Positions 36,778-64,000 of a stretch of DNA of 64,000 nt are shown piece by piece. The stretch is taken from positions 5,073,520 through 5,137,519 of the forward strand of contig CM119271.1 in assembly GCA_051294375.1 (NCBI GenBank), given 5' to 3'. This DNA comes from Paraspadella gotoi. Its lineage: Eukaryota; Animalia; Chaetognatha. A model generated the notes under the pieces. That model did no database searches, had not been told where the DNA came from, and was given only the letters and a program-made list of their open reading frames with translations. The position numbers and the translations under genes are program-made. How positions within the stretch are numbered: the stretch's first letter is position 1; each line of letters begins with the position of its first letter.

Positions 36778-38811
36778 AGACAAACGACGCCATTTTTTCG
36801 CCTCAGACGACCGCAAGATATAATCCGTTTTTACACCCAGAGTCGTTTGGCCTTTGTTTTTTTTTCACTTGATTAAGATCCGCGTTGCGACTTCCGCGCG
36901 TGAAATACACGTCGGTCGCGCGCGTAAACTGCATCGCCCGGATGTAGAGCATCGTTTGGGGATACGGAAGGGTCAGATCTCTCTTTTTCGAATCCTAGAA
37001 TCCACATTTATTTTCAATTTTCCCCTCGTACTCCCGCTGTCGGTTTCTGTCGGCTCCATCATTGGCATCTGTCGGTTTTTTTTAGCTCGTTACGTCATTC
37101 GGGCACCCGCTTTTTTTTTCCCGACGTCACCCGAAGGGCACCTGTCGTTTGCGTCTCGTCTTCGTCGAATGAAAAGAAGAACAAAAATGTGGCGAGAAAT
37201 GGATGACAGATGTTTGTCGCTTCTTGCGTCTCTAGTGACGAAACATTGAAAATTCGATGTTTTTTTTGTTTTGTCGTGAATCATATTCTTTCTTATGAAT
37301 TCTTAACTATATTATTTATTAAGTAACATAACCGTTATATAATATATATGTACTTAAATAAATTAGGTTACGCTAGTAGGAGACTCTTGACGTTTGAGCC
37401 TTGAACCCATAATCCTCGACCTCAGGAACGTGGGCCTATGACCCTTAAACATTAGTCCTCGAGCTGGGACCTATGACCTCCGACCTTTGACCCAGGACCC
37501 AGTTCACCTGTTGTATTTGCAGTCGATTTCCGTCTGCGGCGGAAGCGGGAGACGCATGGCGCCGGCGTCCGAGACCGTCTCCTGGTCTTTCCAAATGTCC
37601 GGCAAAAAGTGACCTTTTTTGCCTGAAGGATTCGACGATCGGACAGATATAAATAGATATATCTATTTCAAATCATTTTCATTTTTATAAAAACGACTAA
37701 ATTTCGGCGGCGACGACGACGACGACGACGATATCGACGACAGAGACAACGACGACGACGACAACAACAACGACGACGACGACAACAACAACGACGACAC
37801 CGAACCCACCGACAGTCTTAATTCTTCCTCCCAATCGACTCTCCTTCTCGATGATCGTGATTTCGATGGAAGATTTCGTCGCGAGAGCGAATTTGCCCAA
37901 CTCGTACGCCGTCGCCAGACCTGGAAGGCGGGTGAGGAGAAGAATGGGTCAGTTTTAAACGGTGCGAAAGCGTTAGGAAGGTAAGCTTACGCTTAAAAAT
38001 GGGATAATACATTGAAATTGAATCGATTAAAATGACGAACCCCCGTTTCGGCATTATTTTTTACCATAATACCCCTCGTTTTATCTTAAATTTCGGAATT
38101 AGATTAATTCTTTTAACCTAAAGATTAGGTTAGAAGTTTGGGTTAGAGATTAGGTTAGGGATAAGGTTAGTGGTTAAGGTTAGGGATTTGGTTTTGGGTT
38201 TGGGATTTGGGTTAGGGATTAACATTTAGGGTTAAAGGTTAAGGTTATAAATTAAGGATATCGGTTTAGGGTTTGGGTTCAGGGATTAGATTAATGTTAG
38301 GGATGATGGTTGGGTATTGGTTTATAAGTTTAAAAACATGTTTAGATTAAATATTGATACAACAACGAAAAAAAACCCATCGTTGTTGAAATTTTTTTTT
38401 TTAATCTGAGGTTAAACATAAAGTTAAACTTAAATTCGGGCCTAAACGAGCAGAAAAGTGTGCCAGAAAAGAGTGCCAGAAAAGAGTGCCAATAAACACC
38501 CCAAAATTATTCAGCGACACTTGGCCTCGCCCCTAACAAAAATGCTTTCTGATTTCAATGTGTCTAAAAATGGAAACAAATTTAAATTTATTTTTTTGGC
38601 CTACCTTAACAACCCACATCCCCTTAAGCCCGCCTCACCCTCGACTCACCCGACGCGCCCGCCCCTATGATGGCGACCTTCAGCCTCGAACTTAGTTTTC
38701 CCTTCGTCTTTTTCCCGCCAAATCTTTTCGCGAATCCGTTTCCCGCCAAATCGAGAAGATCTTTTCGCCAGAGATTTTGAAATTGGATGGAAGGGAAAAG
38801 CTCCTCGCATT
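30714..38811 (-). CDS. FAD-dependent L-amino-acid oxidase / flavin amine oxidase family protein, paralogue B (5' exon not located)
   Basis: Exons (-): 38650-38811, 37810-37920, 37508-37622, 35785-35938, 35456-35550, 35049-35234, 34456-34599, 33717-33946, 32983-33231, 32392-32591, 31824-31995, 31242-31326, 30714-30789 (TGA). Intron positions and phases are the same as in paralogue A. Motifs: VAIIGAGASGLATAYEL, EKESRLGGRIKT, DAGAMRLP, IYFAGDGFSFKPQWIDGAF. Confidence 0.9.
32129..32355. repeat. ~230-bp structured interspersed repeat, copy 2 (intronic in oxidase B)
   Basis: Homologous to 27971-28226. Confidence 0.8.
38120..38330 (+). repeat. Degenerate TTAGGG-like tract inside an intron
   Basis: Repeated gttagg/gggttag/ggttaagg units. 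A similar shorter tract lies at ~44030-44080 inside an inverted-repeat element. Confidence 0.6.
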
Positions 38812-39614
38812 CTGGGAAAGGGAAATAGACCGAAGGGGGGGGGGAAGAAATTTGATTATTTAATTCGTAAATGATAAACAAAAGATACGTGACCCTATCT
38901 TTTATGAGATTATTTTTTTTTTTATAGTGTAATTTGATAAACTTTTGTGGCCTAAATTCGCTGTCCAAGCCGATGGGAGCTGAGTATCACCAAGCCACAC
39001 TTTTCTGATTGATTGGTACACTGATTGAATAATTTATTAAGTTATTGATTGATTGATGGATCTTGTGATTTATTGATTGATTGACCTTTTAATCTAATTG
39101 ATCCTTTGATTATTTGTTACATTGATAATTTGAATAAATTGATCGATTCTTTCATACGTTCATTGAATAATATATGGATTGATTAAAATATTTTTTTTTT
39201 AAAGTTAATGCTTTTTTTTAAGTTTCCAATGTGAAAGACGATGCCACTAGCAGTTCACCATCCGTTTCACACTAGGACCCGGACTTTATAGATCAGTAGG
39301 GCGCGAACCCGAGTCTCTTGGGTTGAGAGGAATTCGTGCTAATCCCGACGAGTAGCGGGGTATAAAATACTACCGCTACACACTCCATATACATATATAT
39401 ATATATAAAACATAGATAAGGGAATTCGTCAGCATAGAATAGAAAAAGAGGGTGGTAACGGCGGAGACGACGACGACGACGACTACGACGACGACGAAAT
39501 GACGCGATAAGAATTAGAAGAAACTCTTAAAAGTCCAAAGAAACTAAAGAAAAATCTTAGCCACAAAAGAGGAAAAGATAAACAAAAACTTAACGACCGA
39601 GCAAAGAATCAGGA

Positions 39615-40185
39615 AAAACGACGACGACAACGACGAAGTTGACGACGACGACAACTCTGAAGATAATGGTGACAACGACAACGACGAAGATAATGGGGAC
39701 GACGACAACGACCATGACGAAGCTGACGACGACGACAATGGTACAGAAAATGGTGACGACGACAATGACGAAGACAAAGATGACGACGACAACTCTGATG
39801 ATAATGGTGACAACGATGAAGACAAAGATAATGGTGACGACGACAACGACGAATATGATGATGACAATAGTGAAGATAATTGTGATGACGACAATGACGA
39901 AGACAAAGATGACGACAACAAAGGTGAAGATAATGGTGACGACGACAATGACAAAGACAAAGATGACGGCGACAACTCTGAAGATAATTGTGATGACGAC
40001 AAAGAAAAAGATAATGGGGATGACGAAAACGAAAACAACGAAGCTGATGACGACAATGACGAAGATAATGGTGATGACTACTATGAGAATGATGAAGATT
40101 ATGACGACGATAACTGTGAAGATATGGGTGGCAATGACAAAGACAAAGATAATGGTGATGATGACAACGACAATGACTGTGAGAT
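39615..40185 (+). repeat. Degenerate trinucleotide (GAC/GAT/AAC) low-complexity tract; one frame reads as Asp/Asn-rich
   Basis: About 570 nt without an indel. The + frame reads NDDDNDEVDDDDNSEDNGD... and has no upstream ATG in frame. Confidence 0.7.
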
Positions 40186-40700
40186 AAACATTAACATAAA
40201 CATAAACATTCGAACATTGCCCGTTCCTTTAACATGGGCCCGAATAGAAAAGACGTTTCTTATTTTATTGTGAAACTTTATTAGTCAAAATCCTACCGGA
40301 TACCATAAAAAATGAGTTTTTGAAGCGGCTACAACATTTAATTGAGCTCTGAAGAGAAACTAAAAAACGAATCGCGAGCTCTCACGCAAAGTAAAAATAT
40401 TTACAAAGGTCACTTTGAATTGTGGTCGTTTTATATTAACCTGAACGAGTGTTGAGAGAGAAAAAGATGNNNNNNNNNNNNNNNNNNNNNGACGAAGATG
40501 ACGACGACGACGACGACCCCTCTTTCTTACCCTGACTTTCTTCATCTCACCTTTTTTTCCGTCCGGTTTTCGGCGTTCGGCTTCTGCTTGCTAGTACGAG
40601 TCTCCTTTGCCGCAGTAGCCAATGCTGCAGCAGGGATTAGTCGGGAGTCCGTCGCGCATTCCGCATCGTTGCCGCATTTGCCGTGTAGGCGGAGACACAT

Positions 40701-45570: not shown

Positions 45571-48500
45571 ACAAATTTTATTTTCGCGATTAAAAATAGC
45601 AAAGTCCATCCCTCCTTCCATTTTTTCCTCCGCGCTTCTGGCATTGTCCCAAAGAGCTTCTCAACACCCCCCAACGTCTCCCTTTCCCGCCGCAGCACTA
45701 CTCTCACACGCCCCGCCGCCGCCGCCGCCGACGCAGGCGAATATCGCTGCCGCGTTTTCAACGGCGACGATCCCGACGAAGACGTCGAACTCGAAGCCGT
45801 GTTCGTCGAGGTGCGGCCCCGCCGCTCCGTCCGGCTGCTGCGGGAATGCGACGCCAATCCTCTGCGGGTTCTGGGCGGACGTGGAGGCAGCGGCGCGCAG
45901 TGGCTGCGGCTCCGCTGCGTCGTTTCGCCGCCGCTGCCGCAGCCAAAGTTCGAGTGGAGGAAGGACGGAGCGGCGTTGGGCGGATTCGTCGGAGATAAGT
46001 TGGAGCGAATCGTCGACGTGTCCTCGGTGGAGGGAGATTACGAGTGAGTTTTTGCGTGGGATTTTTATTTATGACAACTTGTATATTTTTAATGATCAGC
46101 TATTTAAATATTGATGAGGCAATCATAAACTACATATAATGCTAATTATTAAATCATCGACAAAGACGTAGGAGCAAATGTAGAAAAACATACATCCCTG
46201 TGAGAAATTCAATCAAAAGATAAACAAGACCTCAGTTACTTGAAGAGTAGCGATCCATCCAATGTGTTGCGCCTCAGTGACTTTCTTTTCACGTCTATAA
46301 TATTTATGTATAACAAACGTCTTATGGTTAGATCACTACTGTGCAAAGTTTTATTTCAAAACAACCAGACCATTTAAGTTATGCATTTACTTGTGATCAT
46401 ATGACCATAGTTTGGCGTGACCACCTGACTATACAAGCATGAATCATATGTAAAAAACCTACATTTGAGGTTTTTTTTTCCTGTCCTAACAAATGAGCAC
46501 TAACTATAGGCTAATTATTGCATTTTGAACGTAAGTTGGACAGACAGACGACAGACGTACCGACCGACGAAAAGTGACTTCTAGTTATAGAGTCGCTGCG
46601 CGAGTACTCGCGGAAGCAACTAAAAACGGTTGATTCCAGCTCCACATTTTCTCACCTCCTCTCCTCCTCTTCCTCCCCCTCCTCCTCCAATATCCACCGC
46701 TATTCACTGGGATTTCCACTCCATTCGACTTTCGACTCTCTCTCCCGAGCTCAACGGGAAAAAAAAAATATTTAAACATAAAATTATAACGAATATAGAA
46801 ATGAATGGAATTAAAAAAAAAAAGGCTACGCAACCCGATTGAAACTTCATCTCATTCAGATGTCGCGTGACCTGGGATGACGGGACGACCCTCCAGTCGC
46901 CCGTCGAGTCCGTGGAGGTCAGGGTGGGCGATCCTCTTGCCGTTCTTCGGGAACCAGGGGACGTTACCGTCAGAGAAGGTTTGATCATATCGTTTGTAAG
47001 TATAAATGCCTATTTATTTCTTTTTTTGGCCGTTATTTTCCATTCGAAATTATTATTGTCCTCAACAGTAATAATCATTATCAGGAAGGAATTCTGCGCT
47101 GTACCGATTTTGTTTCTGTTACTATTTTTAAAATGTTAAAAAAAAAAGGATTATCAGCGATAATTATCATGATTAAATGTTAAATGTTATCTACATCATC
47201 AATATCAACATCAAATCATCATCATCAATTCATCATCGTCATCATCACCACCACCACCCCCGACCACCCCCAACCCCAACCTCCTCCCAGGCGCGCCCCT
47301 CCTCCTCGACTTCTCCCTCAACAGTTTCGTCGACGTCGAGTGTCGCTGGTTCTTCAACGGACGCCGCATCGACGACGCCTTCCTCCGCTCCTTTTGGCGG
47401 CGCGAGAATGTCGAGGGCGAGGCGTCGACGCGGCTGCGGATCCAAGGGGTGGGGAAGGCGCATCAAGGGGTGAGTCGAAAGAGGGAGAGTAAGGGGGTAA
47501 GTGGGTAAGGGGAGGACGGATTTTTTTTTTTTCTGATTGGAAATTGGTACAACCAATATAAAAAAATTATCCATTCATTTAATAAATAAGCTATCTTGTC
47601 CCTGACTTTGGACAGGCTTTGGTGGTTTAAGGCCTCCATCACACTTACGAGATAATAACGTAGCAGGTTTCTGCAAGCTTTCAATGAATTTATTGACTGA
47701 TTCAATGTTTTATTAATTAATTAATCGATTGATTTAATTGATTGATTGATTTTAGTCGTGGTTTCATTGTTTTGATTGATATATATATTTCCCGATTTCT
47801 TCATATTTCATGGTAATTATCCTTTCTTTTTCGTTGTTTGAGAGATTAACAAAGTTTGATTTTATTTTGCAACGAATTTTATTTTAAAAGAGCAGACATA
47901 TATAACTCATGTGCGCTGATGAAGGCTCGTATTGTGAGCCGAAACATGTCTGCTCTTTTAAAATAAAATTCGTTGCAAAATAAAATCAAACTTTGTTAAA
48001 ATTCATATTTCATAAATATTATTCAGTCCTTCAATCTATAATTGTTATACTACTACCATTATCAGCTGATCATCCAAAGATTTATAAAAATATTTTTTTT
48101 CCCATACAGCTTTACAACTGTTGCGTCACTGGAACAAGGGGGGAAATGTGTTTGACGAAGCAAGTCACTGTAAGTGTCTGTCTGTCTGTCAATCTATCTA
48201 TCTTTCTATCCATCCTTACCCACCCCTTACCCCACCCAATCTTAAAAATTAGGTAACCGTGGACCGTCCGGCCAACTATCACGCCGCCCAAAAGATCGCC
48301 CTCCTCATCGGCAACGGTCGCTACCGGAACCTTCGCCAACTAACGACGCCGCCCCAAGACCTCGCCCGCCTCGGCGAGGAGTTGGAGGCGCTGGAGTTCC
48401 GCGTGATGAGCTTCAACGACGTGGGGCGGACGACGACGTTGAAGGCGATGAAGATGCTCGTCGACGTGATCCGCCCTGGAGGATACGTCTTCTTCTTCTT

Positions 48501-51500
48501 CACGGTCACGGATTTCAAGAGGGAAACGACGTCACTTGATGCCCACCGAAGAGGACGGGGGTGAGGGGTGGTTTTGGGGGGGGTTTTGGGGGCTGTGGTG
48601 TGTAGAGGTGGTTAGGTGGTGCGTCGATTGACTTATATGAATTTAAAGTTTTATCGAGTCGAATCAAAATGATTGGAATTTACGGATTTTTTGGCGACTC
48701 GCAGTTTTAGACTCGCGTCAATCAGGATAACCTCAGTCACGACTTAATACTTTGTGACGACTGACGAGGGTCTCCAAAGATTGAAAAGTATAAATACGTA
48801 AACAAAGAAAAATTAAAATGTATAAATTAATTTAATTAAAATTAAGAACACTTCTTTTAACGTCTTCTCATGCACAGTTAATCTAATGATGAAAACGTTT
48901 ATCCTCCCTTTTCCTACACCTGAAATTGCTCTCTCTCTCACATTCCCTGCTTCTCTCGCTCCCCTTTCCCTTCTTCTTCCTCCCTCCCTTCTCTCTTACT
49001 CTCCCTGTCTCCTTTCCCTCCAATTCCTGCCTTTCTTTCCCTTATCTCCCTCCCCCTTCCCTCCCTCTTTCCTTTCCTCCCTCTCCCTTCTGGCCCTCCC
49101 ACTTTCCCTACATTCCTCCCTCCCTCTTTCATTCCTTCAGACGACGACGAACTCGGCATCAACTTCCAAGCTTTCGTCGACGCCGTCGAGTCAAAGTCTC
49201 CCGCGCTGACGGCTGCAGTGCTCGACACCTGCAGGGTGCCTTATCCGGGGAAGTTGAAGAAGGAGAGGAACTTCGTTCGTAAGAATCACAAGGTGTGTGA
49301 CAGAGTTGTGGGCATTCGACTGGATGTTAAAGATATTCAGTAAAGAGTGCAATGTCGCTGAGACTACATTGCAACTTAGTTGATCTCAAACTTTCGGCCT
49401 CTTGCTTAGTTGGCAACGCAAGACCACGACAGTGGTAGGGGTCCAAAGTTCCAAACCCTGAGATGGCCCGCGCTCTGGGCTTCACAGTTAATCCCTCCCG
49501 TTGCTAAAATAATTTGCTTTTTTAGTAATTGTGTAATCTTTATACATAGTCGGAAGCGGGAATTAATTAAGTCTTAATGAATGTGACAGATTAGAATTAA
49601 GAACAAAAGAATAAGATTTTTGAAAATATTTTTTTTTGGGGGGGAAAACCAGAGAAATAATAATCATGATCATCAATCACCACCATCATAACCACCACCT
49701 CTTCCACCACCCCCCCAACCCCCCCCAACGCAGGGCTCCACCATAATTCTCCACCCCACATCCTTCGGTCTTGAGTCCTACGAAGACCAGAATCGCGCCA
49801 ACGGCCTCGTGGTGGAGTATCTCCTGGCGGACGGCATCCTGCGCAGCCCCGTCAGCGTTAGAGAGGTTTTCTCTCGAGTCATGGACAGGATGCGATCGGA
49901 GAACCTCGTCGCCGCCCACGGGAAGGATCAGGTGAGGGGGAAGAAAGGAATGATGATGGGTTTATTGTGTGTTAATTGTCGTAGGGTGGATTTTTTTTGG
50001 GGTCGTCGTCATCTTCGTCTTGGTACTATCAAATAAAAAATATAATTATAAAATTATAAATACTATCCATTTATAACGTGAATAAGTTATCTCGCCTCGA
50101 ATTTGGATAGGTTACGCTGTTGTAAAATTGTTGTATTTTTTCGGTTTTTCGAACCAGAGTTAAATTTTTCTTAAGAATTATTTGTATGAGCTGTGCGCTT
50201 TAAAAACTTCTGTCTTCCTCTGAGCAAATAATTCTTAAGAAAAATTTAACTCTTTTAAGAAAAACCGAAAAAATATAACAAATTTACCAAAAATTAGTCG
50301 TAAAAATGAAAAAAAAAAGACAAGTGATAACGACAAGGACAACAACAACAACCAACAACAAAACCCTTGAATCCACTTCTCCATCAGTTCCCCGAACTCA
50401 AACTCCAACTGAGCGAGGAGCGCAGCCTCCATGACCCCGTCGACGCCCGCGTCTCTCAATCGCAGCGGCGACTCTTCCAACGCCTCGACGCGGAGATGTT
50501 CTGCTGCGTAGATGGCGATCGTTATCGGCAGGTGAGGCAAAGGGTAGGGATTACTGGGAGTGAGGAAACTAATTTCTCCAGCATTAATTGATGTGCAGAG
50601 GTGGTTTCATTGAGGGGACCCCGTGATAAAAATGATATCATAAGCTTATTAAGCTTATTAAGCTTAAGCGTCTATCATTAAAGGAATTGGGGGGAAAAAC
50701 TTGACTATTACTGTATTATAAATATTCTAGCTCGAAAGGAAGAATTGCATAAAAATAAGTTTATATTTGTTGTACCAATTTCATAAAAATAAGTTTATAC
50801 TCCCGCTGGCTTCAAAATAGTATTTCCTGGGCAGGCCCTTAAGCATCACTGGGGCATCGAGATCGGGCGGCCAATCACCAACGCGTTGAGAATCCGGGTC
50901 CCGGCCAAGACGCTTCGGACTCACGTGGTCACCTTCGGACCCGAGAGGTTAAATCGAGAGGACACAGTCTTCGCCGATTTGAACAAGATCGAAGATACAA
51001 ATGATATCGATCTCGTTGTATTTAATCAGGTGAGAGAGCGGCCTCTTATCTTTAGGATAGTCTTTTGTTAGTTTTTAATAAAATTTGTTTAATAGAGCAT
51101 AAATACTGTGGAAGGTTGACAAATATTTACTGTTTAATATTCGAGAAAAGAAACTTAATATATGTCGATACCTCCCATCCCGATGGTTCCAGGAATTAAG
51201 GTTTTTGAAGAGACAATAATGATTGTTGTGTGTTAGTGACAGAACCGTTCAATATAAGCAATCCCTGATCTTCGGATCAGGCTGTAACACCGTATTACAG
51301 TCGGGTTAAGCGCCTCATTCCTCTTAACTGCTAGGTGACCACTAGGCTAGAACCCCGAACCTTTGGGTTGGGAGGCGAATGACTTGCCTCTGGCACCAAT
51401 GGCTGCTGATGAACGGTTGGTGGATTTTAGTCCACCATACATCCCCCCCTCCCGTAGGGAGAAGTGAATTGTTGTTGGTGGAAAGTTCGTCACCAAGTTG

Positions 51501-53141
51501 AGGCATGTTGCCTGAAAGTGTTGTTGTTGCTGTTGTGTTCGGAAGTCGGGCTCACCAATGAAGAGACAATGATGATTGTTATGTGTCAGTGACAGAACCA
51601 TTCAATATAAGCAGTCCCTGAGCTTCGGATCAGGCTGTAACACAGTGTTACAGGCGGGTTAAGCGCCCCGTCCCTCTTAACTGCTAGGCGACCACCAGGC
51701 TAGAATCCCGGACCTTTGAGTTGGGAGGCGAATGACTTGCCTTTGGCACCAATGGCCCCTGATGAACGGTTGGTGGATTTTAGTCCACCATATTTTTTTC
51801 GATACAGTGACCGGTTAAAATTCGCCCCACCCGACAGGGAAGACCAATGTATCTGACGTAAGCCGCATACGTTGGTTCTTTGTCATTCTTCTCTTTATAT
51901 TTTATCGGAAATTTTATAAATTTATTCAGAATACGAAATTCAAAACGAGACTGCGAATTTATGACCGGCTCAACACTTTTATCAGGTTAGGGGAAATATT
52001 TGATCAGTTGGAAGGTGAACTTTCGTGTCATTAAATAATAATTTATAAAAATTCAAAAAATATGACACACAAGCATTAAACATGAAAATCTGAAGTACAT
52101 TTTTTTTTCTTATAATTTCAAACTGAGATGCTTCATTGATAGGCCAAAATAGTTAAATTTTATTAATAGTTTTATTTCACTATCAAAAATGCCACCGACT
52201 TTGGCCAGGCTTTGGTGAGTTAAAGCCTCCATCACTCTTACAAGATTTAATAACATTTGAATCAAGACTCGCAGTCACATATCATTGTTTTCTGTAACAG
52301 ATCTTACACGTTACCCAAAGACTTTCTCTCCACCGACGAATCTTCCACGAGTTCAAACGCTTGGACGGCGAATCTGGAGGAAGATTTGCCGCATCCCACG
52401 GAACAGGAGGCGGACGACGCATCGTGGAGGTTAGTTTCAACAGAAAATTGTACCTGAAACAAAAGCATAGCTCAATAATTATTTGTTTCTTTTTAGTAGT
52501 TCGTCTTCTACCACATATTCTGCAACGCACAACGAGCTGAAACGCTTATCTTCCTCCACTTATCAGTGAGTAGAGAGAAATTAGAATTAACTAAGAAAGA
52601 TCTCTCTCTCTCTCGGCTTTAAAATATTATCCTGCAAAAATATAAAATTAAAGAGAGATTTTATATTTTTTTTACTGTAAATTTTCTAGAAATAATTTAC
52701 AATTATCATAAGTAAAATAATAAAACTGTCATAAATCTATGATTTCTCTCTTGATCCAGCTCGACAAAGATGGCTGAAGAGGATGTCGACCAATGGACTT
52801 CCTTCCCGCCGCCGCAAATTCCTCGTTGCCCTCGTCATCAGCGTCCGGCTTCCTCTTCATCCCTCGGCGCCGGCGCGCCTTGCGATTGCCGGTATACGCC
52901 GACGCAGAACCCGATTGACTGCCGGTACACGGGATCTCAACATTCCGCCGATAATCGGTACAGTCATTTGAGAGAGCCAGAAGATTTCGGCGACGAGGAG
53001 CGTCCGGTCGACGAAGATTCGTCGGGACTTTTACCGGATTTTCGAATGCTTCGGGTGCCGGAAGAAGACGAGTTGGAACCAGATGAAACTTTGCAAGAAG
53101 AAGAAGAACTCTGGAAATTGGGAAAAGTCGTTCTCGTGTAA
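42191..53141 (+). CDS. MALT1: Type-1 paracaspase (MALT1-like): death-domain-like N-terminus, three Ig domains, caspase-like domain, C-terminal extension
   Basis: Exons (+): 42191-42453, 43130-43355, 43857-43936, 45696-46043, 46860-46978, 47291-47469, 48110-48169, 48253-48560, 49141-49292, 49734-49931, 50388-50531, 50835-51029, 51930-51985, 52301-52429, ~52500-52565, 52760-53141. Motifs: AAQKIALLIGNGRY; GHG (His codon 48507-09, needs frameshift correction); LDTCR (Cys 49230-32); ESYE..ANG; QFPELKLQLSEERSLHDP; Ig signatures DAGEYRC, GDYEC, GLYNC. Confidence 0.88.
43356..43632. repeat. (GTCG)n-derived microsatellite in MALT1 intron
   Basis: Tandem gtcg/ggtc units that start right at the donor site. 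Confidence 0.9.
43955..44265. mobile_element. MITE-like inverted-repeat element in MALT1 intron
   Basis: cgatacatgggccttatttcccgaaagcgc versus gcgctttcggaaaatagcgccaaggtatatcg (imperfect TIRs), plus an internal gaagagatacaaca/tgttgtatctcttt hairpin. Confidence 0.5.
44686..44731 (-). ncRNA. Minimal type-I hammerhead ribozyme (Penelope-like element type)
   Basis: Minus strand reads aaaca CUGAUGA a GACUCU-aaacuac-AGAGUC GAAAC GU GUC ugcuu: conserved core boxes, 6-bp stem II, GUC triplet. Confidence 0.75.
46222..46626 (+). mobile_element. Helentron/HINE-like repeat, copy 2 (MALT1 intron)
   Basis: Homologous to 19668-20011, with (GACA) microsatellite and terminal gcgagtactcgc hairpin. Confidence 0.55.
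47911..47955 (+). ncRNA. Minimal type-I hammerhead ribozyme (Penelope-like element type), sense to MALT1 pre-mRNA
   Basis: gugcg CUGAUGA (47916-22) a GGCUC-guauugu-GAGCC GAAACAUGUC ugc. Palindromic ACAUGU helix III. Predicted cleavage after 47950. Confidence 0.8.
50128..50282. repeat. Palindromic MITE-like foldback in MALT1 intron
   Basis: agagttaaatttttcttaagaattatttg ... caaataattcttaagaaaaatttaactct arms, with extended outer pairing. Confidence 0.65.
50611..50842. mobile_element. Truncated third copy of the Kolobok-like MITE
   Basis: ggggaccccgtgataaaaatgatatcataagctt is the reverse complement of the right end of 29046-30255. The right boundary is uncertain. Confidence 0.65.
51206..51792 (-). 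mobile_element. Tandem pair of tRNA-derived SINE-like elements (51206-51439 and 51559-51792)
   Basis: Two ~233-bp direct copies. The minus strand has A-box-like TGGTGCCAGAGG and B-box-like GGTTCTAGCC, followed by hairpins (cctgatc-ttcg-gatcagg; ctgtaa..ttacag). Confidence 0.7.
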
Positions 53142-54114
53142 GAATTGACGCCGTGGTTGTGGTTGTCATTTTAAAGAGTTGTCAGGGTGTCCACTGTCTA
53201 TTAGAATTTACAATGTTCTTATGAAAGCCTATTTAGACAGTGTCATAAGGACTTTCATAAGGACATTGCAAATTCTGTGCTACCTTTTCATCCTGTTACG
53301 AATTTTTCTGTATTTTAATATTCATTATTTTTTTAGAATTAGCTGAAATTGTTAAGAAAGCGTCTGCAAGCAATCCGGTTGAACCAAATGTGGTCAATAA
53401 ATAGTTCTTGTTGGTTTAAAAGGGGATTTTCAATCGGTTCGCGAAGCCGATCTTTTTTACAATCACCTTCATCACTTTTGTACGAGGCAGCTGTTTAAGG
53501 GAAAGCTATTGGAACCCAAATCGACCTTGTATAAATGTGAAGTCGCCTTTCCAAACTTACCAATTGACGTCAGAAACGAGAGTCAGTCTTGTTGTGTGAA
53601 GTGAAGATGCCCTCATTGCAAAATGAGGGCATCTTTTCTCCAGTTAACATCCTAATGCCTTGAAGATAATCTTCCATGATAGTTGGATAGAAATCATCAT
53701 TCTTAAACTTTGCTAAATCCAAAACGTTTATTGGACCATCCTGCCCTTCACATTTTATTTCCCAAAGTTGCTGGTTTTGCTCCCATTTAAACTATCTTGT
53801 GCAAAGTGTTAGGATTCAGTCTGTTCATGGCTTTGTAAAGGCCGTGGACAGGGTTGTAAAAAAGAAAAAGGTAATTAAGAAAATGGAAAAGGAACAGGAA
53901 AAATCCCAAAGGTGAACAGAGATGTATAAAAGTAACTTTGGGAGCCTTACTTCTGGTCACACATTCCAATCTGATGATGTCATATCCGGTCACTTCCCTT
54001 TTCAGTCATTTCTGATTCTAATTATAGTTGTCATTGCCAACATCTTATTGACACGCACCGTGCATGCGTGCGAAAAATTAACAGAATAACATCCTGCTGC
54101 AGAATCCGATTTCT

Positions 54115-54198
54115 TTTAATTCTTTCTCGCTATCTCTATCTCTCTTTTAATTTTCTCTCACTATCTCTCTCTCTCTGATTAAAGTTCGATCTTTGAGT
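54115..54198 (-). repeat. ~80-bp motif repeated three times (54115-54198, 54607-54689, 62614-62678), each upstream of minus-strand ORF remnants
   Basis: tcgctatctctatctctctttt(a/g)attttctctc(a/g)ctatc.ctctctctct shared by all three copies; gattaaagttcgatct shared by the first two. Confidence 0.7.
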
Positions 54199-55513
54199 GT
54201 AATCGCAGGTGTTTTATTCACCTGGTTTTGTAAATATTATTCTTTGGGTAAACACGATTGACAAACAGCTCCACAATTAAATTTAACAATTATTTACAAA
54301 GATTTAAATTTTATTTTTATTTAAATTTTAACAACATATAATTGATAAGTAAGGGAAGCGTCCATTATCGCAAATATTCCCCCCCTCATCACCTTCTCCA
54401 TCAAATGATTCTCCCATTTCCGCAATTTCTTCCTCCACCAACACCGTCTTCAATTGCATCACACCTTCCCGGACGGATCTTTTCCGGTTCTCTTTTCAAT
54501 TCTTGTTTCCCTGATGTGATGTAAATGATTTTGTTTTCCCACAAGAGTAATAATAAACGGGGTCTGCAGCTTGATCTAGAACCCGGGCGGGACTGGAGCA
54601 ATTTCTTTAATTTTCCATCGCTATCTCTATCTCTCTTTTAATTTTCTCTCGCTATCCCTCTCTCTCTGATTAAAGTTCGATCTTGAGTCTTGATATTTCA
54701 CACCCTATTTCAAATACGAGAGAAAACAATACTTTCTTTGGTTGAGCTTGATTATTATCATAATTATAAGTCCTAATCGCCTGATTAATAAAATCCATGT
54801 CAACGGTCAAAACGGGTTCGAGCATATCCAAACAAGTTAACAACTCTCAAATGATTAACGTCTAATTCTTTCAAAATCAAAAATGGTAAAAAAGTCTTTC
54901 TTATAGGTTTTAATTAGTTTTTTTCCTTTCGTAAGCCACTTCCTCCTCATTTCCTGGAATCGCCGTGAGTTCTTTCAGGTCGTCAATTTCGCTATAACGC
55001 CAATGCCTTTGCATAGTGTACTGACGAACTTGCATGTCTGTCACACATCCACGATTGTTAATCTTTTCATCGTGAACCAATATCCCCCGTTCCTAAAGAG
55101 TCTCGACATGGGAAGGAAAGTCTTTACGAAAATTCGGTTCACGTGTACTAAAAGTTCTAGTACTTGAAACATTTTTATTGTTAAAAAGTTTATTTCGATC
55201 CGTTCGTGACTAACGGAAAATCCACCGTTCGCAATTGCACCATTTTTGGCCATGTTTATGGTTTAATTCTAAAAAATTATAATGAATTTCATTGATCAAA
55301 AAATATAATTCAATTTTAATCAAACTCATAATTTATGATATTAAAGAAGTTAAATAATATAGCTAATGTTTAATTTATAATTAAAAAATTATTAATAATC
55401 AATATTCCCAATAATCAATATTCCCAATACAAAAAATCAATGTATTTAATAATTAAGCTTTTTGTCTAATCAATATTTTTCCCAAATAACAAAAAGATTG
55501 CTACGAAGCAATT

Positions 55514-55969
55514 TCATTTAACTCCTTTCACATTCTTTTTACAGTTCGCAACGATTAACTCGTCTTTGGTCAGAGACAAACCGAAACAGACAGGCGAACA
55601 AAAGAACAAAGAGCTAGAATGGGTCTCATAAACGTATGGTTTTATCTGCATGGTCGCCTTCGCGATGGCCGAGGTTTGCGGATGAAAGACGCTGATGGCA
55701 TAAGCTAAATGACTCGAAATCGGGAGTTTCATGCCGGATAAACTGTCCATGTTATGAGCTAAACTTTCTTTCTTGTCAAAGTTGGATTTTAAATCCCCTT
55801 CGTCCCACATTTCAATCAACTTGCGGGCTTCTTCGTAAGATATAAACAGCTTCAATGGACCAGAAGCCTTCTCCACGCGCTCGCTAGAACCCGCCCCGAC
55901 AAAACGTTCTTTAGACACTTTAAAATATCCCTCGCCTCCTTTCAAAAAAGAATGTGTAATGTAATGCAA
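55514..55969 (-). CDS. Orphan ~150-aa ORF of normal amino-acid composition (unknown function)
   Basis: Open, non-repetitive frame in AT-rich surroundings, with a possible acceptor at ~55986. No motif recognised. Confidence 0.45.
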   Translation of the reverse strand: MHYITHSFLKGGEGYFKVSKERFVGAGSSERVEKASGPLKLFISYEEARKLIEMWDEGDLKSNFDKKESLAHNMDSLSGMKLPISSHLAYAISVFHPQTSAIAKATMQIKPYVYETHSSSLFFCSPVCFGLSLTKDELIVANCKKNVKGVK

Positions 55970-56549
55970 ACTCGAGCGGTCGATCTGAGATTATAAAGAT
56001 TGGACTTTGATCTTTTGTTTGAAAATACGTAACCATTTTTGAAATTGAATTATTTATAATACTTAAGTACAAACGACGAATTTTTACCCTGAGAATTTTC
56101 CATATGATGAACTAGGATTTCGATTTACATTTACAGTAGATACTGTTTGTAATGAATTAAACACCTTTGTTACGACTATAAGAAATATATAATTATTGAT
56201 ATTTATACAATTAATATAAAAAAACAAAAACATGCAATTACCCAAAAAATTGGCCACCATAAAAAACTATAGATTAAGTTAAAAATAAATTTGGGTTAAA
56301 GGTACAATATAAAATTTATGGATTTATCCGAAGAATTAAATGAAGAAGATGACAATTTTTAAAATGTCGTGATGTCAAAAAGGACATTATCGTCATCTTC
56401 ATTTTCATTTAATTCTTGGGATATATTTGAAAATTCTATATTGTTCCTTTGTTGAACCAAATTTATTTGGCTCAACAATTTATACGGCGGGAGGGTATTG
56501 TTTCACTTTGGTCTTCTTCGGCATCTTCTTCTTCTATTGATATATTTTT

Positions 56550-57405
56550 TTATTTTAGTTTTTTTTCCTTACTTGAATTAACATTTTTAACATTTTTGAA
56601 AATAATAATAACAAAAGTTAAAATAAAAACTAAAATCAACAAATTTGCTAATCCGATTGTTGTCATGATCCAATTTGAGCTATGAAAAAGAATAAAAAAA
56701 ACCGAATTAAGAAAAACAGAAATATATAATAATGATGATGATGATAACATTTAACAATATAAAATATTCATATTAATTTTTTACTTGTTTTGTTGACTCG
56801 TGGTTGGGTCTGCCGATCTTGTAATTGAATTGGAAGTCGAACTGTGAAATAAAAAAAACGAAAAAAAAAACAACTAAAGATGTACACTTTTAAAAAATGA
56901 ATATAAACAATAAAAAATATGAGAACAACTTTAAATTCATTACTTGTTATTGTACGATATTGTAGACTCCGCCGTCGAAGCCATGGACGCCGCTGACGTC
57001 ACCAGTGTTGAGGGCGCCTCTGGTGACGTCATCGGCATGGACGGCGTCGTCTTTGACGCCGGTGACGTCGCCGAGGTAGATGGCATTGACATCGGCGACG
57101 TCACAGACGTCGATGGCACCGCCGATGGATTCTTAGGGGAGACGGAGATGAGATGAGACCGGGTTCATGGACGAGGAGGAGAAAGGCGGGTTTATGGACG
57201 ACGAGACGGAGGACGGGAGGACGTTCGGGGTCGCCGGTGACATCGTTGCCAACGAAGGAAAAATGGTCCATGACGTCACCGACGTGGGATTTACGGACGA
57301 AATGGAGGATGGTGTAGCCGATGACGTCCTTGCCCATGGATGAAAGGTCACTGGCGTATTTGTTGTCACTTTATTCGTCCGTGTAGTTGACGTGCACGTC
57401 GCCAT
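56550..57405 (-). pseudogene. Ser/Thr/Pro-rich mucin-like single-pass membrane protein, copy 1 (spliced, frameshifted)
   Basis: Exons 56944-~57405 (S/T/P-rich, one frameshift near 57140), 56785-56841 and 56550-56679, joined by phase-2 GT-AG introns. TM segment NWIMTTIGLANLLILVFILTFVIIIF followed by KNVKN. Confidence 0.6.
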
Positions 57406-57865
57406 CGTCGTCGTCCATTTTCCTTTTTAGTTCATCGGTTCAAATGGATTGATAGCGACATGATGGTGGGGTTGAGGGTTTATAAAGGAGGGGAAGATTA
57501 TTTGTTGGGCGATGTGGAGGGGTAATAAATGGGAGTTAATTTGAATTAAATGGGGAGGGAAGGTAATGGTTAAAACAGTGGGGGTAAATAAATCATGATA
57601 ATATGCAGTATTATTTAAATGTACAAAGGTGATGGAGAAGCGACGACGACGTCTAGAGGGATGTCTTCCATCTCCATCTCCAATGTACAAGATTTGAGTG
57701 GCGGTGGTGGTGTCGGCCAACTCAAATATTGTGGGTTCTATGATAGAGCTTGATTTGTTGCTTGCGTTGTTGTTGTCGTGTCTCATCGGGAAATTGTGTT
57801 ACCAGATTTTAAATTCAAATAACAATCAAAACGCTTAACGCGTTTTGAATGTTGTTATTAATCAT

Positions 57866-59130
57866 TTATAGCGTCATTCCTGACGAAGCAGTCAGGTAGG
57901 CGGGCGTCCCAGGTGGTAAACTTGGCATAGTGACCCAAGTGACCAGTGGTAGGGGAGACTCGGGGAGGTTTGGAGAATCATGTGTGGAATGAAAGATGCT
58001 GGTGGGTGGAACCTCTTGATTCATTATGGTGTTGGAGGAAGCAGTGATTGATTGGGTGTCTAGAAGGGGAGGTTCAATTCTACCATTAAGACTTTGCCAG
58101 TACCATAGCTGAGGAGGTATTCCATAGTCATTTAACCACTTTGCTGGAAATTCATCATCATAGTATTCTTTAATAGTATCCAAATCAAACAATGACCTGA
58201 TATTTGTATACATTTCATCTCTTAGCATATAACTGGTAGGGCACTTATGAAAAGTTAAAGGGACATTAATACAGATAGTAGCTCCTTGTTCTTTGTGAAT
58301 GCTTAATAGGGCCTGTTTGCTGTCTCTAAGCACATCATCTGCAACTTTTATAGCGCTAGCATAGTTTTTTTCATCTGCATAAATCATGGTCATCAATCGA
58401 ACTTTCGCACTCAAGAAGACAATTTTCTCTAAGTCAAAATGTTTAGCTGGTATGAACTCATAATAAGGGATGCAAATTTTTAGCCTTCTGGCTCTTAAAC
58501 TCTGTGATGTCACTTAAACAGCTGAACTGACAATAATCTCCTCTTCATTATTTGACTTCCATTTGTATGCTCTGGTTGTGTAGTATTTTTTAAGCTCCTT
58601 AAGTGTCCGTGTCAGTTCTTTTTCAGTGTTATCAGCCCCCTTCCCTTCTACCCATTCTGTTATCCACTGGATTCTACTTTGTCTAATTTCTGGTAAAGTT
58701 AATAATGACAAGTATACAGATACCACATCAGCACTTTCCTTGTGGAATCTCATCTTTTCCTCTGGTTTTGCCAAATTGACTGCTTCTTCTAGCTGATTCA
58801 ATATTGGGTTTTCATTTAATATATCAATCATTGACCCATCACTCAAAAATATTTCTGCTGTTCTAGCATTTTTCCCTGAGGTTTCAGTGTCCCTTGCTTG
58901 GCTGAGGTGATCATCGGGACCCTGCTCACCTCTTAGCGAAAACCCGATGGCTGAGCTGGAAGTGAAGTGTTGATCGATGGGAGTGGAGGCTGTGGAGTTT
59001 GGGCTCGAGATGTTTCAACCTGGGTGGCCTGAAGTGGAGCTTGTTGGTGCTGGGCACCTTGAGGAGGAGGTTGTGGCTGGTGCTGGGTGTTTTGAAGTGG
59101 AGGCTGTGGGTTGCCCTGTGCCGTTGCAAA
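57866..59130 (-). pseudogene. Degraded ~400-codon ORF of unknown origin (Gln/Pro-rich start, CpG-depleted)
   Basis: ORFs 58514-58846 and 57866-58513 abut in the same frame across a single TAA. The Q/P-rich segment 58933-59130 joins by a frameshift. CG dinucleotides are visibly rare compared with the flanks. Confidence 0.5.
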
Positions 59131-60078
59131 AAAAATGTCACAACCGTTACAAACGGATAATTCTGAGGACAAAGTAAAAAAGGAAAAATTGGATATATTA
59201 AATATGAATGTTAGTAAGAATTTTAAAAAGCTTGTAATTTTTTTCGCCGAAAAAAATGCGTAATAAAAAATGCCAAAAAACGCCAAAAAAGACATTTTTC
59301 ATGGCCTTTTTTTCTTTGGAAAACATGTACCGTGGTAGTAAGTATGTTAAACGTATGGAATAATAATAATAACGAAAGAGGGCAGAAGTAAGGTCGTTTA
59401 TACCGATCGACTGACCAACCGACGAAAATCTGAAAACCAAGGGGGGAAAAGGAAAAAAAACTCATGAGTGTTTGTTTTTTTTCGCTTTTCCCCCTTTTTT
59501 TTCGCCGTTTAAAAGAAAAGAGAGAGAGAGAGAAAGAGATAGTAACTAATATTACTACTACGAATAACTTAGCTTTTTTCGCCGGCACCGCGCATCGTGG
59601 TCGTCCACCCCACCCCGTCCCATCTTCTTCTTGGCTTCGGGGTCCATTTTCTTTGTTCGGACATGTATTATTCCAAGGGAGAGAGAGTCGCATTTTTATA
59701 GGCAAAATTTTTTTTTTATCTCTCACTGTGGTGGTGAAAAAGATTGGTTAACGAGAGTAGGTAAAAATGGTGGTTTTATTAAAAAATTAATGAAAAATTG
59801 TTACGATTACCACCACCGAGTATCGATAAAAGTCAAGAAAATAATAGTTTTTTTCGTTCGCTTTTTGGATGGACAAAGAGAGAGAGGTCCCGCCACAGCG
59901 ACAGCTGCGTCAGACGCTGCTAAAAAGTTACTTTCTGCTGGATCGTCGATCCCTCCTGGCTCCTCGTTGTCACGCTCCTCTTCTTCTTCCATTATTCGGA
60001 GGGGAGAGAGAGAGTTCCACGAGGGTGGATAAGTGTCATCGTCGTCGTCCTGCTGGGCCCTTCTCGTCATCCACGTCG

Positions 60079-62262
60079 TCATCGCCCCGTCTTTTCGTCG
60101 TCCCTCGTCGTCGTCGTCTCTCTCCTCCTCTCTTCGGCGTCCAAGATAGCCGCGGCTCGAAACGCCAGATGATGGTTCAAGGGGAGGGAATAATAAGGAC
60201 TCAGCCAGAAGCGTTTGTCCTGTTAGTAATATATATAAATATATATAAATATCTATATATAAATATAAACAAAAAAAATTCAACTACTAACTTTGAAATT
60301 GCTGAGGGAAATTTTTTCCAATTCGACCTTGAACATGGAATATCCGACCGTTCTAAATTGAGTTAGTCTGTGTCGTCTGGGCCTGTCATGACTCAAGACG
60401 TCTTCGAACAAGTCTGTCGTTATAATAATAACAATGATATTTACATAGTACTACATAAATGTAAATCTCTCTCTCTCTCTAAAAACCGACCTGTATTCGT
60501 CAAACGTTGAGCCACCAATCTCTTGGTTATTCCCTTACATCTGGCGCTTTTTTTGACGACGACGAGCCTCTTATCATCGTCATCAACTCCTCCTCAAAGG
60601 GCCAGGTCCTGGCGACGTATCCGTCGGGATCCCCAAAAGTGGCCAGAGTTTCCAAGGAATAACATTTTGGCTTGAGGGATACGCATTTGTACAAAAATCC
60701 GGCACCGGACTCGTCTGTTATTTTAAAAAATGAAATGAAATAAAGTAAAAGGGAAAAAGGGTGAAAGAGAGAGAAAGAGAGTGAGAGAGAAAGAGAGAGA
60801 GTGAGAGAGAAAGAGAGAGAGAGAGAGAAAAAAAGATTTTTTTCTTTCTCGCACCTTTTAAACAACTGAGTCGATTCCTGTTATAATCCCTCCACAGACG
60901 TAATAAAGGCATCCTGTCCTTATTTTCCAACCAATATGGATGAGTTTCTTTGGGACTATAAATGATATAATTATATATTGTACCAATTTCATAATATAAA
61001 TAATCTAATAATGATAATTCAATAATCAATTATTATTATTTATTAGTCTTTAACGTCCAAAATGAAACATAGATTGGCCCAATCGCACCAAAACGAAGCC
61101 AGTCGGCTCTCGTATCGAAAAGCCAATACAAACGAATCCTAAATTATTATTATTTATTAAGTAGAATATTAATCCCCAAAAAAATCGGCTCATCGTGTCA
61201 TTTTACTGTAATCTCACGATCACGTCGGTCCTTGCTTTGTTAAATACTCTTCTTAAATTCATTTGGAAAAATAAAATATTGTGAAATTTTGAATTTTCCA
61301 ATATGATACCTGGATAATTAATTAATTGATTAATTAATTGAATAATTAAATAATTTCTGCGGTAAATAAAATACCTCCGACCATTATCGGTTTGTTCAAA
61401 TTTTGAGACATTGCTTTACCTATAATGATAATAATAATAATAATCCAAAATGAGTTTATCCTGCTGCCGCCGCATCGCAATAATCGTGACCCATCGACTC
61501 ATCGAGTCGTCGGGTCTCTCGAGTCGCGACTATATACTTAGTAACTAAAGCCTACCCCCCTCTCCCTTCAAGGTGAGTACTATCGCAAATCGATCTCGGT
61601 ACTCGAATAGTCGCGAACCGAGGGCGTCACTCGATGAGCCAAGGTGCCATGATTAAAGAATAAAGTTGGTAAACATATTATCACGATGATAAAAATACAT
61701 AGAGATTGGTAAAATCTTGATAAATTAAATGTGTGCTGCCATCGTCCTCAGACGATAAAGGATCGAAGCCCACTTCGCGATTATTGGCAACGGCGTAGCG
61801 CTCAGAAACTTCGCATATGCCTCCGCGAATCATGCGATTGTACGTTAAATACTGAAGGGAATCGGCTTTGCTAAATAATGGGATTTCCACCTTGGTCAAG
61901 GACAGAAAAATGTCGAGACTGATTCCTGCGAAACAGTAATAGTGGGTCGGCGAAATGCCGTGAAGTTTTATCGTGTTTTCTATAAAGTATTCGAAAACTG
62001 CTTCTAAGGTCAAAGTGTCTATCGTATTGTAAAATAGAATTATTTGACCAAAGTTGCTAAAGTTGAACATACGATAGATGGCGAGTGTTTTTTCGTAATC
62101 TTATCGACTGCAAACTTCCTTGGACATATCGTCGGTAAATTCCTCGATGAACGGAAGGTTGGGATCGCTCAAACGGTCCAACGAAAATGCCGAATATGGC
62201 ATTTTTATTTTTTGTAAAATTTGCATAAAATTTTGCCCTTTAGCTTCCCCATAAGTTTCCAC
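60079..62262 (-). pseudogene. polB: Polinton/Maverick/adintovirus-type protein-primed family-B DNA polymerase, interrupted by spliceosomal introns and degraded
   Basis: Segments (-): 61699-62262 (KMPY..., ISPTHYY, MIRGGICEVSERYAVANN, LIYQDFTNLY); 61375-61419 (GKAMSQNLNKPIMVG); 61194-61309 (GIILENSK...LQ*NDT); 61055-61138 (DSFVLAF); ~60855-60955 (THPYW...CLK); 60491-60714 (DESG...VSLKPKCYS...RCKGITKRLV); 60292-60413 (FRT...KISLSNFK); 60079-60219 (DKRFW...SLPLNHH). Motif order matches the Polinton-type pPolB C-terminal half. Confidence 0.85.
61492..61648. mobile_element. Small inverted-repeat element inside a polB intron
   Basis: ctcatcgagt...tcgcgactat versus atagtcgcga...actcgatgag arms. Confidence 0.5.
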
Positions 62263-63505
62263 CTATGACCTATGACTACACGATTCTACGGCGATGTTCA
62301 TCTGTACATCGGAATCTCCCAAAACCCTTTCTACACACTGGTGCCATCTATCGAAATTTTCCCCTAATAGTTCTACGCTAAATCTATTGAAGAATGATCT
62401 GTAACCTAATAAATTTATTAGGAAATCTTCCCCCTCTTCCCAATTACTAAACTCTACCTTACTCAGAATTTTATATGATATAGTATACATTTCAAATATA
62501 TCCCACATAAGAGAGTAAGAAAAACCGGTAGAAAAATGTATCATGTTGAAAAACTGTTAGTCCGGTTAAGTCACATACTGTAGAAACGGGGTCCGATTCA
62601 AACACACTTTGTCTTTTATTTCTTTCTCGCTATCTCTATCTCTCTTTTGATTTTCTCTCGCTATCTCTCTCTCTCTTTTATTTGAACTCGGCGAACTCGT
62701 TGAAGTCGAGATAAGAGATCTTGAGATCTTTTTTTGAGTTTGATCTTTTGTTTAAATTATTGAGTTACTTAAGTACATCTACAAACCAAGGTATAATTAT
62801 ATTATCTTTTGTTTAAATTTTCTTTGACTCGAATTTTCTTTGACTCGAATAATCTTTTTAAGTACAATCTTTTAATTACTCTCTCTCTCTCCTCTCTTCT
62901 CTTTCTCTCTCTCTCTCTCTCTCTTTTCTCGATCTTTCTCTCTGTCCATTTTTGCACGTGAATCACACCTGATTTTTGAAAATGGATTTGAGGATTTGAG
63001 TAAATACAAACATTAAACATTTTGATGTCAATCGTATCTAAAAGCTTTTTACAATGCTTATCAGGATTGTTTGATTTGAGATTTAACAGTAGTTACTTTT
63101 TTAGATTTAAAAAAATTAAGATATAATATCGTTAAAATGAGTATATTAAATTATAAAAAAAAACAATGACACAAAAAATAAATGAATGATTAATTAAATA
63201 TATCAATTATTTAAAAAATTAGCCAGCGTAAAAAACCCGTGATTTTATTTAAAAAATAAGAAAATTTTTAAAATTAAGGGAAATATTGAATTAAACGATT
63301 TAAGAGAAAGAATTAATTAAAGAGAGCTGGTGATGTCGAAAAGCACATCGTCATCACTTCGTTTAATTCTTCTCCAAATGTTTAACTCAATATTTCCTTT
63401 TAAATTAATTTGGCTAATCGGGGGTTTTTGATGCTGGCTAATTTTTTGGGGGAAGGGATAAAAGATGAGAACATATTTACATTGTGGGTTGCAAGGGGGG
63501 GAAAT

Positions 63506-64000
63506 TTATTTCCTCTGGTTCTTCCTCTTCCTGTTCTTCAACCAAATATTTGACGATTTTAATTGTCTTTTTTCTTTTACATTTTTCTTTACCATTTTAA
63601 AATAATAATAATGAAACTTAAATACATAATTTAAAATCATCAAATTACCCAGAGAAAGAGTTATTAACATCCAGTTTGTTGAAGACTTGGACACTGGGGA
63701 TGGGTAGGATGAGCTGGAGGAGGAATTTGCAATCGAGGTCGCCTGTGACGCAGATGACGTCGCCGGGGTCGATGATATCGACATTGTTTTGTTTACCGGC
63801 GACGTCATAAACGTCGGCGGCCTAGACGAGGTCGGTGTAGTTGTATCCGTTTGCACCCTCGGGGACGACGCCGAGGGTGCTGAAGATGCCGGGTCTTTTG
63901 ATGTGTTACTTGTAGATTTCGGCGACGCCGGAGCGGTGCTGCTCAACGGCGCCGACGAAGAACTTGGCGCCGACGAAGAACTTGGCGCCGGGTCTCTTGA
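63506..64000 (-). pseudogene. Ser/Thr/Pro-rich mucin-like membrane protein, copy 2 (runs off window)
   Basis: S/T/P-rich frame ending STNWMLITLSLGNLMIL, paralogous to SNWIMTTIGLANLLIL of copy 1. The rest of the TM and the acidic tail need frame changes. Confidence 0.55.

Follow-up and report, generated by a model that had tools for sequence, protein, structure and literature searches.

We analysed a 64,000-nt window of the chaetognath Paraspadella gotoi (assembly GCA_051294375.1, contig CM119271.1, positions 5,073,520 to 5,137,519), taken from a gapped scaffold and containing 2,322 N. The window carries the host paracaspase gene MALT1 on the plus strand and, directly 3′ of it, a block of ~11 kb that continues beyond the right window end. 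The block contains an intron-split pseudogene of a DNA polymerase B of the protein-primed type (pPolB). It also contains two mucin-like membrane genes, several smaller open reading frames (ORFs), a repeated leader and a series of hairpins (Table 1). The block is probably a decayed and non-autonomous fragment from a family of virus-like elements of the Polinton/Maverick type, inserted head-on behind MALT1.

Of 704 candidates, 4 matched the translation of 62250-61684 (minus strand), read with X at one stop, with E values of 7e-16 to 5e-13 and 32-34% identity. A profile search over 3714 candidates retained 981 at E ≤ 1e-10; these relatives had 1,351 or more amino acids (aa), and many lay on contigs of megabase size. 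The best 120 of the 981 were ~1,360-1,410 aa long and 29-37% identical; they lay mostly on long contigs, and many bore the EndoVII domain PF02945. In IMG/VR, 84 pattern matches yielded five loci (L001-L005). All five had an rve integrase on the polymerase contig, and their 19 scanned ORFs gave a Pox_A32 match at three loci and a double-jelly-roll match at one. The pPolB of these loci measured ~1,250-1,320 aa, with an EndoVII match in four of five, and in four of five the integrase gene lay immediately beside it. Because the contigs of the relatives hold rve integrase, Pox_A32 and double-jelly-roll matches, the nearest kin of the window polymerase are Polinton-type. Identity to intact Polinton-type polymerases was 28-37%. 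Metagenomes yielded 217 loci, the best 80 of which were all 28-36% identical, with no close relative among them. As a single-sequence query, the polymerase found nothing in IMG/VR or PDB. PF03175 gave no match in the window polymerase or in nine relatives scanned, and neither did OTU; the polymerase therefore does not belong to the Alpha adintovirus class, which the available portion of PMC8502044 describes as a PF03175 PolB with an N-terminal OTU domain. Homology search, profile and alignment all placed polB on the minus strand, as the initial annotation had done.

The alignable part of the polymerase begins just ahead of Exo III. The stretch 62263-62544, previously listed as a separate orphan, more likely represents the polymerase gene's 5′ part, because it is in frame with it, with one stop between, and stands behind the common leader. 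It had no match to the N-terminus of the relatives, to Exo I/II or to EndoVII. Four clean, in-phase GT-AG introns (61374-61310, 60854-60715, 60490-60414 and 60291-60220) could be read directly from the sequence, which bears out the earlier claim of an intron-containing polB; one GT-AG intron sits within the conserved K-D-E motif. Three further introns had defective junctions (near 61698-61420, 61193-61139 and ~61050-60956). The introns contained AG/CT microsatellites like those of the host, whose introns in the window are rich in microsatellites, and they had no mutual similarity in a self-comparison of the block. The first intron holds a CpG-rich imperfect inverted repeat (61480-61660; minimum free energy about -70 kcal/mol), maybe a small insertion resembling a miniature inverted-repeat transposable element (MITE).

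Five of eight downstream pieces were colinear with the aligned protein P0003 (positions 481-489, 581-596, 602-617, 639-659 and 661-675). Premature stops were found at ~62103 and ~61204 (motif C region), and a frameshift at ~60555. Within the short exon 61419-61375, motif A's end is directly followed by sequence that stands ~195 residues further on in P0003; ~195 codons, motif B among them, are thus missing. The stops, the frameshift and the loss of motif B mean that no working polymerase is encoded.

A ~90-nt AG-rich leader precedes three genes, the polymerase and two orphans, and a TATA-containing module precedes ORF 55514-55969. When the block was compared with window positions 1-53000 by blastn, no match was found at E < 1e-4; the leader does not occur in that host part. 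The internal repeats were thus confirmed as block-specific. For the segments 53550-54050, 54340-54600 and 54920-55260, coding status and strand were assigned solely from the upstream motifs; no significant family match was found in the pieces scanned, and within 53691-53915 a frame is also open on the plus strand. The initial annotation had placed every coding segment on the minus strand. This held for polB, the mucin-like genes and 55514-55969, and is putative for the three small segments. Its list had overlooked the longest coding-like stretch of all, 57866-59014(-). Rfam gave eight matches at E ≤ 1, every one far below its gathering score.

ORF 55514-55969 occurs in a second form in the sequencing runs described below. 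Of the 15 differences listed between the two forms (40 of 260 table rows listed), 12 fell at codon position 3, three at position 1 and none at position 2, and 11 were synonymous by hand count. This bias indicates that the ORF is a real gene, as initially proposed, and on such counts it appears to be under purifying selection. Searches with 55517-55969 found no relative in PDB, ESM Atlas, IMG/VR or JGI metagenomes. Of 1.84 billion representatives, P0041 alone matched (E 1.2e-4, 32% over 65 aa); it is an Ig-like protein with a fivefold repeat, and the match was rejected as a repeat artefact. A guessed PC4-like fold was not supported; the model reached a predicted local distance difference test (pLDDT) score of 35.5, and Foldseek returned 0 matches at E ≤ 0.001.

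The stretch 57866-59014 had a CpG observed/expected ratio of 0.25, and 53141-54100 a ratio of 0.62; the host part, 1-53140, showed no CpG depletion (1.03-1.26). No search made with 57869-59014 found a relative. An integrase was considered and rejected, the search being negative. Its model had a pLDDT of 37, with 0 Foldseek matches at E ≤ 0.001, and it showed no likeness to 53573-53791. Folding of the orphans followed by structure search, which the initial annotation had suggested, was thus carried out for these two frames. Contig similarity suggests that sequence related to the adjoining 59120-59705 is present elsewhere. The two CpG-poor parts, both single-copy, might represent cargo of foreign origin or have inserted later. 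As a guess, the CpG-poor stretch could have been donated by an RNA virus or by a methylating organism.

Both mucin-like genes end in a transmembrane (TM) segment followed by a charged tail, and both bear stops or frameshifts. Gene 1 has in-phase GT-AG introns at 56943-56842 and 56784-56680. The TM/tail DNA of the two genes aligned with 75% mean column identity, and the two minus-strand genes recognised earlier are evidently paralogous; BLASTP of the two tails gave no alignment. A long hairpin lies behind each gene, either strand of which folds about equally well. When the two long hairpins were folded together as a consensus, only 7 pairs were kept, 1 of them compensatory, and no covariation was shown. 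Smaller hairpins lie behind both CpG-poor stretches; the one behind the MALT1 stop probably marks the 3′ terminus of the last gene in the block.

Table 1. Features of the block and its MALT1 flank (window positions; X4 is the deepest DNA sequencing run; z, folding score).
Feature	Position	Strand	Evidence
MALT1 paracaspase, 3′ exons	48259..53141	+	flank, convergent with block; Peptidase_C14, PDB matches, spliced X1 contig
Hairpin directly behind MALT1 stop	53203..53276		blastn self-palindrome; z -6.8 / -6.2 (one value per strand)
Single-copy, CpG-poorer stretch, frames broken (53550-54050), putative coding	53280..54108	-	X4 depth 99-115, the single-locus level
AG-rich leader/promoter module, copy 1	54109..54198	-	top X4 summed depth (2299); loose ends leading to other sequences
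Short interrupted frame following leader copy 2, putative	54340..54600	-	ATG immediately after leader
Leader/promoter module, copy 2	54601..54688	-	90 nt at 91% identity with copy 1 (E 4e-28)
Two overlapping short frames, putative	54910..55262	-	open frames
Orphan gene, 151 codons	55514..55969	-	synonymous bias against second form; 5′ end without ATG in this copy
TATA-containing upstream module	55966..56030	-	joints in other copies; partial recurrence upstream of polymerase
Long hairpin behind mucin gene 1	56283..56468		z -11.4, 0/200 shuffles
Mucin-like (Ser/Thr/Pro-rich) single-pass membrane gene 1	56470..57460	-	TM stretch ~56660-56600; stops, frameshifts
Small hairpin behind CpG-poor frame	57810..57860		z -4.6
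CpG-poor, intronless, largely single-copy coding-like stretch	57866..59120	-	57866-59014: 382 codons, one stop
TATA box, with putative short 5′ exons leading into CpG-poor stretch	59120..59705	-	X4 summed depth 659-693 for 59166-59697
pPolB pseudogene, 3′ exons	60080..61698	-	read from sequence; 5/8 pieces colinear with polymerase profile
pPolB, Exo III to motif A region	61699..62250	-	E 6.8e-16, 34% identity; profile E 3e-16; stop ~62103
In-frame 5′ stretch of polymerase (more likely than separate orphan)	62263..62544	-	frame, one stop between; common leader upstream
Leader/promoter module, copy 3, before polymerase	62600..62780	-	repeat core ~62611-62700
Long hairpin behind mucin gene 2	63213..63447		z -11.0, 0/200 shuffles; core common to first long hairpin
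Mucin-like membrane gene 2, 3′ part	63460..64000	-	extends past window end

The flanking gene was identified as MALT1 by a Peptidase_C14 match on the plus strand (E 1.8e-8) and by PDB, where 10 of 11 matches were MALT1; its final long frame stops at 53141. A single X4 contig, 52250-54154 (depth 99.3), crossed the boundary between MALT1 and the block, and therefore the block adjoins MALT1 in a second study too. A single contig of run X1 (52761-54156) also crossed it. The junction is real, and the block was present in samples from three studies.

Run contigs were aligned over 52250-60200 for four of 11 listed runs (X1, X4, X7 and X9; likeness 80). In X4, 416 contigs were placed, and for 304 of these the likeness was below 95%. 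Its summed depth was ~99 over MALT1, 129-917 in most bins from 54112 on, and 2299 in the leader bin; the CpG-poor bins stayed at 97-115. Related sequence at 80-95% was found for most of 54.1-60.2 kb, and block-related sequence is clearly present elsewhere in the genome. In other copies the leader was joined directly to the module at 55966 (54175>55966 and 54665>55966 in X4, 54665>55966 in X7, 54174>55966 in X9), and further segments were also joined differently (54778>55028 and 55076>55339). Loose ends indicated that other sequences stand behind the leader in other copies. The two forms of ORF 55514-55969 had X4 depths summing to 120, against 113-117 nearby, and X7 contained the second form only.

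One X1 contig joined 52565>52761 across a GT-AG intron of MALT1. X1 depth in two MALT1 bins was 10.2 and 4.81; exon-only cover at depth 18 would give 9.7 and 4.8 (calculated by hand). The DNA runs X4 and X7 cover the MALT1 introns. From its splice joint and exon-only depth, X1 behaves as RNA without visible DNA. The same spliced X1 contig crosses the junction and reaches 54156, 1 kb beyond the MALT1 stop. X1 covered 30 of 30 bins with near-identical pieces at depth 8-35, and contained 0.81 of the words of 54000-63900. The piece 56780-57562 (depth 35) ran unbroken across the mucin intron 56943-56842, and the piece 57534-59447 (depth 27) showed no difference. No CT..AC ends occurred among the X1 joints listed. 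A transcript of the plus strand would retain minus-strand introns, which makes read-through from MALT1 the simplest reading; the block is possibly covered by unspliced RNA that forms an antisense read-through tail of MALT1. The X1 cover of 52761-54156 and of 54100-60200 was similar in depth and may represent a MALT1 3′ tail of great length that runs antisense to the element.

If the block derives from a Polinton/Maverick-type family, the ancestral element would have been copied by protein-primed replication and integrated via an rve integrase, like its polymerase relatives. Its genes would have been Pol II cassettes with a TATA box and the common leader, host-type introns and a 3′ hairpin. The mucin-like products would have served at the surface of virions or cells, and the two CpG-poor stretches are likely captured cargo. 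The present copy cannot replicate, and its current activity is likely passive, consisting of unspliced antisense RNA, most simply from MALT1 read-through. The initial annotation had suggested an endogenised polinton-like or large DNA-virus element with spliced genes. Polymerase type, introns, leader and related copies agree with the polinton-like part, reduced here to a pseudogenised fragment that has lost motif B. A large DNA virus received no positive support, all relatives being Polinton-type pPolB of ~1,250-1,400 aa or fragments.

Several results weigh against a Polinton-type origin. tblastn with the five integrases of L001-L005 gave no match in 53-64 kb, and the ATPase and capsid ORFs of these loci gave none in the block; of their ORFs of at least 90 aa, only the polymerase matched the block, apart from weak hits at E 0.009 and 0.02. 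No end-to-end inverted repeat was found among the 25 longest of 135 pairs, and no target site duplication; the block's right end lies outside the window. With integrase, ATPase, capsid and terminal inverted repeats (TIRs) absent from the window, as noted at the outset and now supported by directed searches and an inverted-repeat comparison, the block is not classed as a full Polinton. Adenain protease had no Pfam match in the ORFs scanned, without a dedicated profile search. The five colinear polymerase pieces scored individually weakly (E 6e-4, 0.07, 0.02, 0.06 and 0.11), three of eight failed to align at the expected place, and the pieces were picked by eye. As a tile, the 3′ region gave E 0.011, against 0.007 and 0.009 for the best controls among 39 tiles. 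Because of these weak scores and the choice by eye, the case for the 3′ exons is carried jointly by order, strand, splice phase and motif position. Strong hairpins are likewise present in the window's host part, and no orphan had a relative, viral or otherwise, in any search. Summed contig depth does not equal copy number, since matches to AG- or T-rich sequence and simple repeats add part of it, and the run comparison ends at 60200, short of the polymerase gene at 60200-62550. As to the RNA, X1 is labelled 'RNA?', a guess, no listed run being on record as RNA; its contigs are strandless, come from one data set and give no proof of a single transcript.

The uneven depth from segment to segment (97 to 2299 in X4) and the different segment order in other copies would also fit a mosaic, in which Helitron- or Pack-type capture or segmental duplications gathered host pieces and a Polinton polymerase fragment in one orientation, and which was never a single virus-like genome. 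The absence of any detected morphogenesis or integrase gene in the block, the orphans without viral relatives and the host-like AG/CT microsatellites in the introns point the same way. However, the leader common to the polymerase and the orphans ties the polymerase to them, this leader was not found in the window's 53 kb of host sequence, and the ORFs scanned gave no Pfam match to RepHel or a transposase. We consider such a mosaic unlikely. Less likely still is the chance integration of an integrase-less animal DNA virus with a pPolB (bidna-like, segmented, or larger and enveloped), whose common regions would be the leader and the hairpins. Such a virus would account for the missing integrase, the surface-protein-like mucin genes and the repeated leader-gene-hairpin units, and Starrett et al., in the available portion of PMC8502044, report MELD viruses without integrase and bidnavirus PolBs. 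Against it, all five viral contigs with a related polymerase hold an integrase, the repeats are direct and not inverted termini, and many spliceosomal introns together with many related copies better fit a long-resident genomic family.

Domestication was also considered, with ORF 55514-55969 and the mucin pair serving the host and the polymerase alone decayed. The synonymous bias in the ORF would agree with this, as would the presence of the block in three studies; the two ORF forms, which sum to approximately single-locus depth in X4 and of which X7 has only the second, may be alleles. But the bias may equally stem from the element's active life, the ORF has no 5′ ATG in this copy, both mucin genes are interrupted, and the RNA is unspliced over the mucin introns. 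We regard a domesticated cluster as about as unlikely as such a virus. The reading as a decayed Polinton-type piece is therefore the one we favour. A bolder form of it seems doubtful: an animal Polinton lineage with interchangeable spliced cassettes that have a single promoter/leader in common, host-type introns (the polymerase included) and a 3′ hairpin, with foreign cargo swapped behind that leader and mucin-like surface proteins instead of a known fusogen. Over its dead copy, an unspliced antisense MALT1 tail of >10 kb would template silencing of the family.

Other features were observed in the host part of the window. Two similar copies of ~330 bp stand in tandem within a MALT1 intron (51170-51800), and the strongest hairpin of a sliding scan, MITE-like, lies at 47851-48000, also within a MALT1 intron. 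An interspersed repeat of ~110 bp occurs in host introns at 21794-21905, 30349-30448, 47558-47668 and 52180-52250 (the last by eye), its copies being 78-87% alike. Minus-strand exons at 25696-26259, 31498-33984 and 38627-38986 appear to belong to flavin amine oxidase genes that have been duplicated; 32921-33355 matched Amino_oxidase at E 0.008, and positions 26913 and 35914 hold identical 36-mers. A long GAC/GAT-rich tandem array with a 27-nt period, its frames open on both strands, occupies 39547-40228.

We compared the locus with known systems as described in the available portions of PMC6431247, PMC8502044, PMC10748475, PMC12166617, PMC12220804 and two bioRxiv preprints. Animal Polintons/Mavericks (Eupolintoviridae, proposed adintoviruses; PMC6431247, PMC8502044) share with the block the pPolB type, the integrated state and related sequence elsewhere. 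Here, in contrast, the polymerase is dead and has seven intron-like stretches, the hallmark genes and TIRs are absent from the window, and a common leader, 3′ hairpins and mucin-like TM paralogues are present. The identifiable genes are also co-oriented, whereas one of these accounts, a review, describes an orientation-independent accumulation of ORFs. According to Widen et al. (bioRxiv 10.1101/2022.07.12.499685), the core genes of nematode Mavericks lack introns, cargo with introns lies near one TIR, and transcription went undetected. The cargo region, intron-bearing genes, distinct base composition and membrane-anchored surface protein (a fusogen there) resemble the present block; by that description, the block differs in having introns in the polymerase itself and surface genes that are mucin-like, not gB-like. 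One nematode pPolB class, pPolB2, has an HNH-type endonuclease insertion (PMC10748475); the relatives found here bear EndoVII, in a region missing from this copy. Dinoflagellate eupolintoviral elements with introners (PMC12166617) likewise have spliceosomal introns inside Polinton-like elements. Those are repeated introners in protist hosts, whereas here the host is an animal and the introns lack mutual similarity.

In uni-strand PIWI-interacting RNA (piRNA) clusters and antisense traps of endogenous viral elements, dead mobile-element fragments face against a host transcript that runs unspliced over them. The present block may resemble these in its unspliced cover, but its co-orientation may simply be inherited from one element. 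If the RNA is antisense MALT1 read-through, the locus is a straightforward and testable example of a dead virus-like element that a host transcript makes into a silencing template.

Our literature search, with most subscription papers outside its scope, found no intron-split animal Polinton polymerase and no antisense read-through over a Polinton in the available portions. In these portions, Jeong et al. (PMC10748475) kept polymerase ORFs of at least 900 aa, and the survey in bioRxiv 10.1101/2025.04.19.649669 left introns out of account. Because surveys filter on long unbroken ORFs, intron-split families would be missed. The locus represents a single decayed copy for which no function was identified, a coherent but dead remnant. 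Its particular features are the cassette layout, the pair of mucin genes and the unspliced cover; the leader-gene-hairpin layout provides a DNA handle for locating the intact family.

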